Source: a bacterium
GTDB taxonomy: Bacteria; Patescibacteriota; Patescibacteriia; Magasanikbacterales; GWA2-37-8
DNA length: 64,000 nucleotides
NCBI GenBank assembly: GCA_043810165.1
Contig: JBDROJ010000027.1
Location: 36,974 to 100,973, forward strand
Reading direction: 5' to 3'
The position numbers and the translations under genes were made by a program. Each line of letters starts with the position of its first letter. Position 1 is the stretch's first letter. Below are positions 11,163 through 18,963 of the stretch, piece by piece. A model generated the notes under the pieces. It was not told the origin of the DNA and did not search any database. It saw nothing but the letters and a program-made list of their open reading frames with translations.

Positions 11163-11429
11163 ATGACTGAAAAAAAGTCCGAAAAAACTACTGTTAGAGC
11201 TTATCAATTATTCGCTTTGAGAATAATCGGAGACTTTGGTGCTGTAATTGCCTTGCCCATAATAGCATTTATATTAATAGGACAACACCTGGATAATAAA
11301 TATGACAAAAGTCCGCTATTCACCATATTGTCTTTTATCTTAGCATCTTTAATTTCAGCTAAAATAATTCACGGTAAAGCAAAAAAATACGGGAGGGAAT
11401 ATCAAAATATGGTAGATAATGATAAATAA
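11163..11429 (+). CDS. AtpZ/AtpI-like small membrane protein preceding atpB
   Basis: 88 aa with two TM helices. Position immediately upstream of the a-subunit gene. Confidence 0.55.
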   Translation: MTEKKSEKTTVRAYQLFALRIIGDFGAVIALPIIAFILIGQHLDNKYDKSPLFTILSFILASLISAKIIHGKAKKYGREYQNMVDNDK

Positions 11430-11432
11430 TGT

Positions 11433-12203
11433 ATGCATATACCAACACTAGCACCAGAAGTATTATTTAAAGTAGGAGAGTTCCCAATTACAAACACAAT
11501 GGTAAATGCTTGGCTTGCTATTGTAATTTTTTTAATCTTGGGCATTTTTATCAAACGCAATGTAAAATTAATACCCGGTAAATTTCAAAACGCTTGTGAA
11601 TTTTTCTTGGAAAAATTATTAGGCTATTTTGATCAAGTTACAGGCGATAGAAAAAAAACCATCAGCTTTTTGCCTTTGGTGGGATCAATTTTCTTTTTTA
11701 TTTTACTTTCCAATTGGCTTGGATTAATTCCAGGAACCGGAAGTTTAACCATAGGAAACAACCCATTACTGCGCCCGGCCAATACTGACATAAACTTAAC
11801 CGCTTCAATGGCCTTAATAGCAGTGATCTCATCCCACATATTTGGATTGGTAACGGTAGGAGTATTTACACATTTAAATAAATTCATCCAAATCGGAACA
11901 CTGGTATCCAGTTTTAAAAAAGGTCCGGTAGCGATTCTTACAGCTATAATTGAAATGGGTGTGGGACTGATTGAGATAGTAAGCGAGATCGCCAAGGTTT
12001 TATCATTATCATTAAGGTTGTTTGGAAATATATTTGCAGGAGAAGTCCTAATTACAGTAATAGCCAGTTTATTCAGCGTACTTATGCCAACACCATTCAT
12101 GTTGCTGGAATTATTGGTAGGCATAGTGCAGGCTGGTGTATTTGCCATGCTGGCAACGGTTTATCTGACTGTAATGACCACCAAGCCAGAGATTGAACAT
12201 TAA
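11433..12203 (+). CDS. atpB: F0F1 ATP synthase subunit a
   Basis: LSLRLFGNIFAGE motif containing the essential Arg. Multi-TM protein. Confidence 0.9.
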   Translation: MHIPTLAPEVLFKVGEFPITNTMVNAWLAIVIFLILGIFIKRNVKLIPGKFQNACEFFLEKLLGYFDQVTGDRKKTISFLPLVGSIFFFILLSNWLGLIPGTGSLTIGNNPLLRPANTDINLTASMALIAVISSHIFGLVTVGVFTHLNKFIQIGTLVSSFKKGPVAILTAIIEMGVGLIEIVSEIAKVLSLSLRLFGNIFAGEVLITVIASLFSVLMPTPFMLLELLVGIVQAGVFAMLATVYLTVMTTKPEIEH

Positions 12204-12242
12204 AATTAAATTATTTTATTAACTAATTAATACAGAATATAT

Positions 12243-12464
12243 ATGGAACACGTATCAATTCTAGCTTTGGCCAAAGGTTTGACCATGGCTATCGGAGGAA
12301 TCGGTCCGGCTTTAGCCATTGGCTTTTTAGTATCCAAAGCCATGGAAGGCATCGGTCGAAACCCGGAATCAGCTGGTAAAATCTTTGTACCCATGCTTTT
12401 GGGTGCGGCTTTTGCCGAAGCTATCGCCATCTATTCTCTAGTGGTGGTATTCACTTTAAAGTAG
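12243..12464 (+). CDS. atpE: F0F1 ATP synthase subunit c
   Basis: [10 protein letters not shown]...[13 protein letters not shown] hairpin proteolipid with the carboxylate E in helix 2. Confidence 0.9.
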
Positions 12465-12476
12465 TTTGATTAGTCT

Positions 12477-12510
12477 GATCTAAAAAGTCAGACTTATTTA
12501 AACTATTTTA
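12477..12510 (+). terminator. attenuator/terminator-like hairpin after atpE
   Basis: AGTCTGAtctaaaaaGTCAGACT followed by a T-rich tract. Confidence 0.4.
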
Positions 12511-12520
12511 TAATTTTTAT

Positions 12521-12814
12521 ATGGAGGAAGAAAAAAATATCAAACAAGATACTAAAGAAAATACTGACAAAATCAAAAAAAGCGGTAGACTAAGATTAGT
12601 TTTGATTATAATAGGAATTTTAATAGTATTAAGTTTAATTTATCGTGTAAATAATTATTGGAAATACAAAAAAATAGAGCGGGCTGTTCAAAAACAAACT
12701 GAATTGTTGGAAAAACAAGGCAAAGAAATACAAGCCAATTATCTAAAACAGATAAACGAAGTGCAACAGAATATTTTGGAACAACAACAAAAATTGGAAG
12801 AAGCCCAAAAATAA
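12521..12814 (+). CDS. small TM + coiled-coil protein (possible divergent b'-like stalk subunit or lineage-specific insert)
   Basis: One N-terminal TM (LVLIIIGILIVLSLIY) then a Q/E/K-rich coiled coil. Located between atpE and atpF. Confidence 0.4.
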   Translation: MEEEKNIKQDTKENTDKIKKSGRLRLVLIIIGILIVLSLIYRVNNYWKYKKIERAVQKQTELLEKQGKEIQANYLKQINEVQQNILEQQQKLEEAQK

Positions 12815-16797: not shown

Positions 16798-16802
16798 AGC
16801 AT

Positions 16803-17039
16803 ATGGAAAATTCTAAAAAAGCAGACGGTTATCTACAAACTAAATCAGTTGAAGACGCTTGGGAACAATTTGCAAAAGGATATATAGGACATGATAACAA
16901 CATTACTGATGCGGTATGGGAAGATTTAAAAAATGTATTAAAAACAAGATTGGGATATGATGTAGAAGACTCTTGGAGAGAGGTATTTGAATCAAAATTA
17001 CAAGAAGTAAAACAACAAATATTTGATAACCAAACATAA
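16803..17039 (+). CDS. hypothetical protein inserted between atpG and atpD (78 aa)
   Basis: Compact ORF within the operon. Acidic, Trp-rich. No known subunit. Confidence 0.4.
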
Positions 17040-17049
17040 TAAAATAGCT

Positions 17050-18417
17050 ATGAATACAGGAAAAATAATCCAAGTTATGGGCGTGGTAGCAGATGTTCAA
17101 TTTACAGAAAAATTGCCAGACATTTATACTGCCCTTACAACTAAAATGCCGGATGGCGAAGAACTGGTATTGGAAGTGCAACAACATATTGGGACGGGCG
17201 CTGTTCGCACAGTGGCCATGAGTTCAACTGATGGCCTGCAAAGGGGGCAGGAAGTATTTGACACAGGCGAACCCATAACTGTTCCTGTGGGTCCGAAAAC
17301 CCTAGGACGGATGTTTGATGTTATCGGCAATGTTATTGACGGCAAAGAAGACCCAAAAATTGGAAAAAGATATCCGATTCATCGTCCAGCTCCAAGCTTT
17401 GATAAACAATCTGTCAAATACGAAATTCTTGAAACTGGTATTAAAGTAGTTGATCTAATATGTCCATTTTTAAAAGGTGGAAAAATTGGCTTATTTGGTG
17501 GTGCTGGCGTGGGTAAAACCGTACTAATCCAAGAGTTGATTCGCAACATTGCTCAAGAACACGGCGGGTATTCCATGTTTGCTGGAGTAGGGGAACGCAC
17601 TCGTGAGGGTAATGACTTATACAAAGAAATGGAAGAATCAGGCGTGTTAGAAAAAACCGCTTTGGTATTTGGTCAAATGAACGAACCACCAGGAGCGCGC
17701 GCCCGCGTGGCTTTGACTGCTTTGGCCATGGCTGAATATTTCCGCGATGAAGAAGGCCGTGACTTGTTGTTGTTTATTGATAATATCTTTCGTTTCACCC
17801 AAGCAGGTTCAGAAGTGTCGGCCTTGTTAGGACGAATGCCTTCAGCCGCAGGTTATCAGCCCACTCTGGCAACTGAAATGGGCAAACTGCAAGAAAGAAT
17901 TACTTCCACGGATAAAGGTTCTATCACTTCGGTACAGGCCGTGTATGTGCCGGCAGACGATTTAACTGACCCGGCCCCGGCCACAACCTTTGCTCACCTT
18001 GATTCTACTGTGGTTTTAAGCCGTTCTCTGACCGAATTGGGCATCTATCCAGCTGTTGACCCATTAGATTCATCTTCAACCATTTTAGACCCAAATATCG
18101 TTGGTGAAGAACATTACCGCACCGCTCGTGATGTCCAAGAAGTATTGCAGAAATACAAAGACTTACAAGATATTATTGCCATTCTAGGTATGGAAGAATT
18201 ATCTGATCAAGATAAGCTTATTGTCTCTCGTGCTCGTAAAATTCAAAAATTCTTATCTCAACCTTTCTTTGTGGCCGAAGGTTTCACTGGTAGCCCTGGT
18301 GCATATGTGCCACTTAAGGACACGGTTACCGCTTTTCGCGAAATTCTAGACGGCAAACATGATGACAAAAATGAACAGGCCTTTTATATGAAGGGCGGAA
18401 TCGCTGATGTAAAATAA
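17050..18417 (+). CDS. atpD: F0F1 ATP synthase subunit beta
   Basis: Walker [16 protein letters not shown] and the DELSEED-like region. The start was trimmed to the Met after the stop of the upstream ORF. Confidence 0.95.
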
Positions 18418-18431
18418 AAATATAATTTTAG

Positions 18432-18522
18432 ACTGTCATCCCGACCGAGCGTAGCGAGTGGAGGGATCTCAGTATAACACTAAGATCCCTGAACTCGGCT
18501 TTGTCCAGCTCAGGATGACAAT
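18432..18522. repeat. GC-rich nested palindromic repeat element (family 2 variant)
   Basis: CTGTCATCCCGACCGAGCGTAGCGAG...GGATGACAAT, with an internal GGGATCT/AGATCCC palindrome. A near-identical half-copy lies at 46392-46437. Confidence 0.75.
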
Positions 18523-18525
18523 AAT

Positions 18526-18963
18526 ATGGAAAAAACCCTTAAATTTAAAATTATAACCCCGGAAAAAATCGTTTATGAAGACGATATTTTTCAGGTTACA
18601 ATTCCTACATCGGATGGTGAAATTACTGTATTGGCTAATCATATTCCTTTAGTATCGGTTTTAAAAGCAGGGGATTTGATTATAAAAGACAAAAATGATC
18701 AACATCACATTGCTATTGCCGGTGGCTTTTTAGAAGTTAAATCCAATAATCAAATCATTATTTTGGCAGATAATGCTGAACGAGCTGAAGAAATTGATTT
18801 GGAACGAGCCGAAGAAGCTAGAAAACGTGCCGAAAAACAAATGAAACAAGCTAAGTCAACTGAAGACATTGACTTTGCCAAACTTCAAGGTATAATAGAT
18901 AGAGAAATGAACAGAATTAGGGTTGGAAAAAAGTATAAAAAATTACCTAAAGCAAGATCATGA
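18526..18963 (+). CDS. atpC: F0F1 ATP synthase subunit epsilon
   Basis: N-terminal beta-sandwich pattern (ITPEKIVYEDDIFQVTIPTSDGEITVLANHIPLVSVL) and a C-terminal helical hairpin. Confidence 0.85.
   Translation: MEKTLKFKIITPEKIVYEDDIFQVTIPTSDGEITVLANHIPLVSVLKAGDLIIKDKNDQHHIAIAGGFLEVKSNNQIIILADNAERAEEIDLERAEEARKRAEKQMKQAKSTEDIDFAKLQGIIDREMNRIRVGKKYKKLPKARS

Follow-up and report, generated by a model that had tools for sequence, protein, structure and literature searches.

Do extra open reading frames (ORFs) inside an otherwise standard ATP synthase operon encode new parts of the enzyme? This question is raised by a 64,000-nucleotide (nt) stretch of contig JBDROJ010000027.1 (assembly GCA_043810165.1), hereafter the window, in which the atp genes are interspersed with ORFs of 97, 172 and 78 amino acids (aa), designated o97, o172 and o78. 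The locus, from a Magasanikbacteria-like Patescibacterium, is a complete, canonical F1Fo ATP synthase operon with nine intact atp genes. One strand encodes subunits a, c, b, delta, alpha, gamma, beta and epsilon in the order atpBEFHAGDC. Subunits a, c, b, delta, gamma and epsilon were identified with Pfam and NCBIfam, and alpha and beta by their Walker motifs and by 87-89% identity to the nearest relative, L082. An earlier note on this DNA had suggested that the extra ORFs could encode a second stalk subunit, assembly factors, regulators or accessory subunits. The gene order that it gave, atpZ-B-E-(97 aa)-F-H-(172 aa)-A-G-(78 aa)-D-(87-nt hairpin)-C, was borne out by the ORF list and the Pfam and NCBIfam scans.

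We find that o97, o172 and o78 are genuine coding sequences with native codon usage, and that they are probably fast-turnover passenger genes lodged at operon junctions rather than conserved subunits. Variable passengers are the default reading because the same junctions in relatives hold changing, unrelated and often selfish genes. Extra ORFs in a conserved operon are thus not to be read as new subunits without synteny checks. The interest of the locus comes mostly from an atp-restricted family of four-helix-bundle proteins and from a clade-wide hotspot pattern, rather than from the original claim of new subunits.

The extra genes are missing from most related operons

A scan of a genome collection with the gamma subunit returned Patescibacteria as the closest loci, and 20 of their operons were compared. 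These included Candidatus Magasanikbacteria L020 (66% identity), the metagenome-assembled genomes (MAGs) L001 and L002 (63-67%), and loci of Falkowbacteria, Kuenenbacteria, Buchananbacteria and Lloydbacteria (41-47%). Two closer relatives, L082 and L081, came from a metagenome scan with the delta subunit. In L082 alpha is 87%, beta 89% and gamma 77% identical to the window's subunits, and its collinearity with the window extends from 7830 to 21461. L081 consists of one contig of 1.3 kb, with a delta of 64% identity. Exact-sequence searches for sister strains, made with the c subunit and with protein P0001, gave no record.

o172 is missing from L082 and L081, in which spacers of 23 and 62 nt, respectively, separate atpH from atpA. 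It is also missing from 20 further operons of Patescibacteria, even when these are searched with a hidden Markov model (HMM) of its family. o78 is missing from L082, which has a 47-nt spacer at atpG/atpD, and from 20 other Patescibacteria operons. o97 is present in one of the 21 relatives' operons, that of L082. The atpE/atpF spacer is ~50-190 nt in the 19 other relatives that span this junction, and an o97-like ORF therefore cannot fit there. The enzyme can do without the inserts, given that o172 and o78 are missing in the nearest relatives and o97 in most. The synteny comparison thus speaks against the idea that the inserts are conserved accessory subunits: o172 and o78 occur at the same junction in none of these relatives, and o97 in 1 of 21.

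L082 has a private ORF of its own, of 79 aa, at the atpA/atpG junction. Helical ORFs of 79-148 aa were observed at this junction in L082 (8941-9180), L001 (6706-6993), L002 (6541-6987) and L004 (6657-6998), and they belong to no family and show no similarity to one another or to the window's inserts. Two ORFs at the borders of the window's operon are absent from L082. One (orf67, 10847-11050; 67 aa) scores strongly as coding sequence and matches no family; the other (19017-19502) encodes 161 aa from a TTG or 123 aa from the ATG at 19131 and has weak Rossmann-like matches. The private ORF of L082 and these border ORFs show that small private junction ORFs are general here and are not confined to the interior of the atp operon.

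Patescibacteria operons often carry insertions at atp junctions

Insertions at atp junctions are frequent among Patescibacteria, and other bacteria seldom have them. In the same scan, 14 of 22 Patescibacteria operons had one or more junction gaps of 200 nt or longer, compared with 4 of 60 operons from other bacteria, and the four gaps in the other bacteria are all barely above 200 nt. Counted by junction, gaps of at least 200 nt make up 24/155 in Patescibacteria and 4/290 in other bacteria. Filled junctions adjoined atpA or atpD in 19 of 24 cases (binomial p = 0.012, uncorrected for shared ancestry).

The cargo of these junctions is diverse. Where it can be recognised it is selfish: genes of the intervening-sequence type, a toxin-antitoxin pair or palindromic elements. 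Four-helix-bundle proteins of the 23S_rRNA_IVP family (PF05635) are encoded at atpG/atpD in L004, L007 and L020, where the genes are 66-70% identical, and at atpF/atpH in L005. L003 has a GIY-YIG protein (PF01541) at atpG/atpD, and both L003 and L005 have PD-(D/E)XK proteins of the 'GxxExxY' type (PF13366) at atpD/atpC. L015 carries a PQ-loop (SemiSWEET-like) protein. The 1.8-kb insertion at atpG/atpD of L009 (5918-7481) encodes a Bro-N protein followed by a Gp49-like toxin and a helix-turn-helix antitoxin, and is a mobile or defence-type module within an ATP synthase operon. The IVP and PD-(D/E)XK cassettes of L003, L005, L007 and L020 are bracketed by inverted repeats of 26-31 nt. Paired, these repeats would give a long stem that holds the ORF in its loop, a layout known from rRNA intervening sequences such as the classical ones of 23S rRNA. 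The L004 cassette has a 13-nt repeat pair only.

Ribosomal RNA (rRNA) genes of the Candidate Phyla Radiation (CPR) carry insertions that encode GIY-YIG, LAGLIDADG and 23S_rRNA_IVP proteins (PMC11270868). IVP and GIY-YIG insertions in CPR rRNA genes are thus already known, and those at atp operon junctions are an extension. The two settings belong to the same phylum and share the PF05635 and PF01541 cargo, the long stem-forming inverted repeats (in several relatives' cassettes), the patchy distribution and the location within or next to genes that are strongly expressed and very highly conserved. They differ in that the host here is a protein-coding operon and the insertions lie between genes, with the exception of an in-frame element in the gamma gene of L004. 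The window's three ORFs also differ in lying outside these families and lacking flanking stems, and the Pfam scan placed none of them in PF05635, PF01541 or PF13366. The rRNA-gene insertion phenomenon of Patescibacteria therefore extends to the junctions of an essential protein-coding operon. In the literature we found no description of inserts at Patescibacteria atp junctions, of the o172 family or of the palindromes described below. The filled and empty junctions of the relatives form a natural set for studying the spread of elements and gene gain in ultrasmall genomes.

The most economical account of the arrangement in the window is the following. Three small passenger genes and one palindromic element were probably acquired at gene junctions, where an insertion breaks no gene and hence would be tolerated. 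The conserved atpA and atpD flanks may serve as homology arms for recombination, so that cargo would gather beside them. Once in place, the passengers would be expressed by read-through and translational coupling from a highly expressed essential operon, and would turn over quickly.

The o172 family is found in ATP synthase operons

An exhaustive HMMER search of 1.84 billion representatives with o172 as query returned two homologues, P0004 (160 aa, E 6.9e-12, 36% identity) and P0005 (164 aa, E 4.8e-10, 32% identity). A word-indexed search gave only the self-match and missed both, and the metagenome scan found nothing. P0004 is encoded on three contigs (L088-L090), each from a different data source, between the 3' end of atpH and atpA, and the alpha subunit beside it is 67% identical to that of the window. 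P0005 (L091) lies between the C-terminus of gamma and atpD, and the beta subunit there is 83% identical to that of the window. The earlier note had asked whether such ORFs co-occur only with atp operons; for o172 both remote homologues are inside atp operons. All three known members, which come from three lineages, thus lie directly 5' of atpA or atpD, with spacers of 2-30 nt. The corresponding statement holds for o97 through its homologue in L082, and the sample is very small in both cases.

The alignment of the o172 family has 26 invariant columns and the motifs N-x-x-GVEE-h-L and DF-x-x-x-x-L-x-x-RY. The predicted structure of o172 is a four-helix bundle (predicted local distance difference test score, pLDDT, 77.5) of generic fold. 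An origin as a diverged 23S_rRNA_IVP bundle was considered and rejected, with hhalign of the family against the IVP alignment giving a probability of 1.5%. o172 and P0004 are 36% identical, similar to the delta subunits of the same two genomes (34-38%), a level equally compatible with transfer and with ancient vertical inheritance followed by frequent loss.

These observations raise the possibility that the members of the o172 family, perhaps together with o97, are genuine accessory proteins of the ATP synthase that are specific to the lineage. Candidate roles would be an F1 assembly chaperone or a regulator of alpha and beta, like Atp11/Atp12 or the four-helix-bundle inhibitor zeta, translated just before the subunit that it serves. 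The position of every family member 5' of atpA (the window and L088-L090) or atpD (L091), in operons whose alpha or beta is 67-83% identical to that of the window, is consistent with such a role. So are the at least one relocation that kept the gene within the operon, the invariant columns at 32-36% identity, the confidently predicted four-helix bundle and gaps short enough for translational coupling, as well as the retention of o97 at the c/b junction in the sister genome L082. Yet neither of the two nearest relatives has a member of the family, nor does any of 20 other Patescibacteria operons, so that it is dispensable. Its fold is generic, it shows no similarity to a known family of ATP synthase regulators or assembly factors (Pfam, E <= 1), and the neighbouring junctions of relatives hold plainly unrelated cargo. 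We regard a true accessory role as possible but rather unlikely. The idea stays alive for o172 because its family is exclusive to atp operons and it is weakly alive for o97, whereas nothing supports it for o78; the suggestion of accessory factors in the earlier note survives to that extent.

Zeta folds as a four-helix bundle and has a flexible inhibitory segment at its N-terminus. Like the window's ORFs, zeta (PF07345), IF1, AtpTheta, Atp11/Atp12 and AtpI/UncI/CGL160 are small and often helical. Some ATP synthase factors, such as Atp1/UncI, are reported to be encoded in or next to atp operons (PMC4383579), and this can be likened to the exclusivity of o172. The known regulators and assembly factors have no sequence similarity to the window's ORFs, and the window's families are far more sporadic. 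Pfam (E <= 1) and NCBIfam gave no match of o97, o172 or o78 to zeta, IF1, Atp11, Atp12 or AtpI/UncI. Either o172 acts on alpha and beta, or it is preferentially maintained or targeted directly 5' of atpA and atpD. A more specific proposal, tentative and in our judgement unlikely, is that the o172 family would be an unrecognised Patescibacteria-specific four-helix-bundle factor that chaperones or regulates the F1 catalytic subunits, with o97 as its partner in the membrane, associated with Fo. A lineage whose delta lacks the N-terminal part of the alpha-binding domain might require a factor of this kind. The o172 family is in any case a concrete candidate for a lineage-specific ATP synthase partner.

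Several observations weigh against the reading of the window's genes as passengers. The presence of all three o172 family members in atp operons, at two junctions, is poorly predicted by chance hitch-hiking and fits a functional link. The motifs of o172 and o97 have been kept at 32-41% identity, a sign that purifying selection maintains a function. The window's ORFs contain no nuclease or mobility domain, and no bracketing inverted-repeat arms of at least 20 nt surround o97, o172 or o78. A search for mobile-element kin gave nothing convincing in viral-contig scans with all three ORFs, in tblastn searches of o172 and o78 against phages and of o78 against plasmids, or in PHROGs and PADLOC.

Homing to the atp genes is unlikely

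Free-standing homing-endonuclease genes (seg and mob) are found between conserved genes of T-even phages, a situation referred to as 'intronless homing'. Like the window's ORFs, these are small genes wedged between conserved essential genes; they vary among close relatives and are co-transcribed. The window's ORFs differ in that they lack a nuclease domain and reside on a bacterial chromosome rather than in a phage. By analogy, the inserts could be selfish elements that actively home to the atp genes, with the conserved sequence of atpA and atpD as target. The GIY-YIG and PD-(D/E)XK genes and the inverted-repeat-bracketed cassettes at the same junctions of relatives would fit active homing, as would the enrichment of filled junctions beside atpA and atpD and the patchy distribution of every insert. 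So would the occurrence of the o172 family at two junctions, each on the 5' side of one of two paralogous genes, atpA and atpD. However, the three ORFs of the window have no nuclease motif, flanking repeats or mobile-element relatives and, by prediction, consist of helices or of a membrane segment with a helix; the GIY-YIG insertions in CPR rRNA genes did not look like homing spread (PMC11270868). We therefore consider active homing improbable here.

o97 is very unlikely to be a b'-like subunit

The b' subunit of cyanobacterial-type operons is encoded between c and b, and o97 occupies this very position. The earlier note had suggested that o97 could be a b'-like second peripheral-stalk subunit. 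Its build is compatible in outline: a charged N-terminus is followed by a single hydrophobic helix (approximately residues 23-40) and a helical tail of ~55 residues. It is also conserved in L082, where the atpE/atpF junction likewise holds an ORF (6086-6397, 103 aa), with 41% identity to o97 (E 7.5e-9). The two proteins have in common an MEE-KN start, an EIQxNYLKQ motif and the membrane helix; a word-indexed search returned the self-match only. The details argue against kinship with b. o97 did not match PF00430 at E <= 1, whereas the true b subunit scores 1.7e-24, and BLASTP of o97 against the b subunit of its own genome (atpF) gave E 0.43. A b or b' subunit requires a helix of ~120-130 residues after the anchor to reach delta and the top of F1. 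In o97 ~55 residues follow the membrane helix, compared with ~130 in b, and it is therefore too short to reach delta. At its N-terminus o97 also carries 22-35 hydrophilic residues for which b has no counterpart, and in 19 relatives the gap at this junction leaves no room for an ORF. A b'-like role for o97 is very improbable, and this part of the earlier note did not hold.

The extra ORFs are genuine genes

In 20000 composition-preserving shuffles, a stop-free frame of the same length never arose for o97 or o172 and arose 9 times for o78. A codon-usage log-odds score trained on 29 long genes elsewhere in the window gave, in frame, 0.55, 0.51 and 0.52 bits per codon for o97, o172 and o78, and negative values in the other five frames. 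For reference, the score is 0.31 +/- 0.13 for pieces of real genes 78 codons long and -0.67 for sequence read off frame. The annotation of the MAG by its depositors calls all three hypothetical proteins (ABIH87_02740, _02755 and _02770). The GC content of the extra ORFs (0.27-0.30) is somewhat lower than that of atpA and atpD (0.42-0.44), and their composition resembles that of atpZ, atpF, atpH and atpC (0.31-0.34). No paralogues or duplicated DNA of the extra ORFs were found elsewhere in the window.

The gaps before and after the ORFs are 2 and 10 nt for o172, 5 and 10 nt for o78, and 56 and 26 nt for o97, so that the tight packing (0-10 nt) described in the earlier note applies to o172 and o78 but not to o97. 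None of the three ORFs matched a family in Pfam, NCBIfam, PHROGs or PADLOC. This agrees with the statement in that note that the 172-aa and 78-aa proteins have no obvious counterpart. It had named absence from close relatives together with a missing coding signal, or a match to an unrelated domain, as evidence against its proposal. The coding signal is strong and no unrelated domain was found, but o172 and o78 are indeed missing from the operons of the closest relatives.

That the ORFs are decayed insertions, or frames left open by chance in AT-rich spacer, as the low GC content, the lack of any homologue of o78 and the very few homologues of o172 and o97 might suggest, is essentially excluded by the rarity of such stop-free runs, by codon-usage scores above the real-gene mean in the annotated frame only, by the protein-level conservation of o172 and o97, by start and stop codons placed precisely against the neighbouring genes and by the depositors' annotation of all three as genes.

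For o78 alone the non-gene reading keeps a slight probability. No relative of o78 was detected by the word-indexed search, which returned only the self-match, or in viral contigs, phages or plasmids. The orphan status of o78 and o97 refers to this word-indexed search, which is less sensitive than the exhaustive search made for o172. Two candidate origins of o78 were tried and rejected. It shows no residual similarity to the IVP cassettes found at the same junction in L004, L007 and L020, of which it could have been a decayed remnant, and none to the 79-aa ORF of L082.

A palindromic element between atpD and atpC

The palindromic repeat reported between atpD and atpC in the earlier note is present as an imperfect palindrome of 87 nt. 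The hairpin folds at -40 kcal/mol (z = -4.8), and 0 of 200 shuffles were as stable. It is not an intrinsic terminator, since it has no T-run, and it had no match in Rfam. Its ends, TGTCATCC and GGATGACA, are the invariant ends of paired hairpin elements of 63-121 nt in L003 and L004, many copies of which lie in atp junctions. The consensus of the ends is TGTCATYC ... TCRGRATGACA, and L002 has a single end motif. Matches to the end motif numbered 20 in 394 kb of Patescibacteria DNA and 7 in 759 kb of DNA from other bacteria.

The window hairpin is best described as a putative member of a family of palindromic elements resembling miniature inverted-repeat transposable elements (MITEs) or repetitive extragenic palindromic (REP) sequences. 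It is like such repeats in being intergenic and imperfectly palindromic, in sharing its termini with copies in other genomes and in having related copies that cluster in the atp junctions of L003 and L004. It differs in being present as a single copy within the 64-kb window and in lacking an Rfam family.

In L004 an element with TGTCATYC / GGATGACA ends lies inside atpG (element 7334-7444; gene 7001-8023), in frame in the gamma subunit, where it adds ~41 residues to a variable loop. The gamma subunits of the window and of L001 have a shorter insertion of 17-20 residues at the same loop relative to L082. The same atpD/atpC spacer in L082 holds a different, AT-rich and nearly perfect palindrome with ~23 bp per arm (11550-11630). 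A hairpin at atpD/atpC may therefore be a recurrent feature although its sequence is unconserved.

A short delta subunit is a lineage trait

The earlier note had pointed out that delta is unusually short. The 128-aa subunit of the window matches only positions 57-172 of the OSCP profile (PF00213). Delta is also 128 aa long in L082 and L081, and 129-141 aa long in 19 of the 20 genome-scan relatives, those in which atpH was detected. In the remaining one, L009, BLAST missed atpH and a 134-aa delta-like ORF fills the slot. Approximately 40-50 N-terminal residues of the alpha-binding domain are missing from delta across these lineages. Because the short delta is common to every relative examined, it is a lineage trait rather than a peculiarity of this locus. 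The contact between the peripheral stalk and alpha may thus differ from that of model enzymes.

Operon layout and other features of the window

The features of the operon are listed in Table 1.

Table 1. Coordinates of the ATP synthase operon and its borders in the window, and of repeat-bracketed cassettes in related loci.
Feature	Position	Strand	Evidence and remarks
Sigma-70-like promoter match, best of region	11087..11115	+	TTGACT-17-TATAAT, 11/12; 48 nt 5' of atpZ; consensus scan only, putative function
atpZ, AtpI-like small membrane protein, 88 aa	11163..11429	+	PF09527 ATPase_gene1, E 1.1e-6, 29 bits vs cut-off 26.6; relatives' homologues at same position
atpB, Fo subunit a, 256 aa	11433..12203	+	PF00119, E 7.5e-41
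atpE, Fo subunit c, 73 aa	12243..12464	+	PF00137, E 1.7e-16
o97, single-pass membrane protein, 97 aa	12521..12814	+	No family match; coding score 0.55; L082 homologue
atpF, Fo subunit b, 192 aa	12841..13419	+	PF00430, E 1.7e-24
atpH, delta, 128 aa, short N-terminus	13424..13810	+	PF00213, E 4.3e-21, profile positions 57-172 only
o172, acidic all-helical protein, predicted four-helix bundle, 172 aa	13813..14331	+	Three-member family, atp operons only
atpA, F1 alpha, 499 aa	14342..15841	+	Walker A GDRQTGKT; 87% identity to L082 alpha
atpG, F1 gamma, 317 aa	15844..16797	+	PF00231, E 1.6e-92
o78, acidic soluble protein, pI 4.6, 78 aa	16803..17039	+	Singleton; coding score 0.52
atpD, F1 beta, 455 aa from ATG 17050	17050..18417	+	Walker A GGAGVGKT; 89% identity to L082 beta, N-termini align
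87-nt imperfect palindrome	18434..18520	.	Ends TGTCATCC / GGATGACA; stops 5 nt before atpC start codon
atpC, F1 epsilon, 145 aa with C-terminal helical domain	18526..18963	+	PF02823, E 1.7e-24; PF00401, E 1.7e-10
Terminator-like hairpin then T-run	19056..19079	+	93 nt 3' of atpC; pattern match only; likely transcription-unit end
Inverted-repeat-bracketed cassettes of relatives	L020 2596-3055; L007 4997-5432; L005 3398-3854; L003 10084-10624; L005 10639-11179

A promoter-like site lies 5' of atpZ and a terminator-like hairpin 3' of atpC, and between the two no strong promoter or terminator match was found at or beside the extra ORFs. On these sequence features, the region from atpZ to atpC, the extra ORFs included, is most likely one transcription unit. 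The start of atpD was placed at the ATG at 17050 rather than at the upstream TTG at 17023 because the beta subunits of relatives begin there; o78 and atpD therefore do not overlap. No recognisable Shine-Dalgarno sequence precedes any gene of the operon (window 11130-18530), and the leaders are all A/T-rich. Since no operon gene has one, this check is uninformative about the extra ORFs.

Two long ORFs lie on the minus strand, one of 171 aa opposite atpB (11633-12148) and one of 135 aa opposite atpA (14302-14709). They are most likely artefacts of codon structure and not genes. The sole Rfam match above the gathering threshold in the window is a tmRNA gene at 55355-55752 (134 bits).

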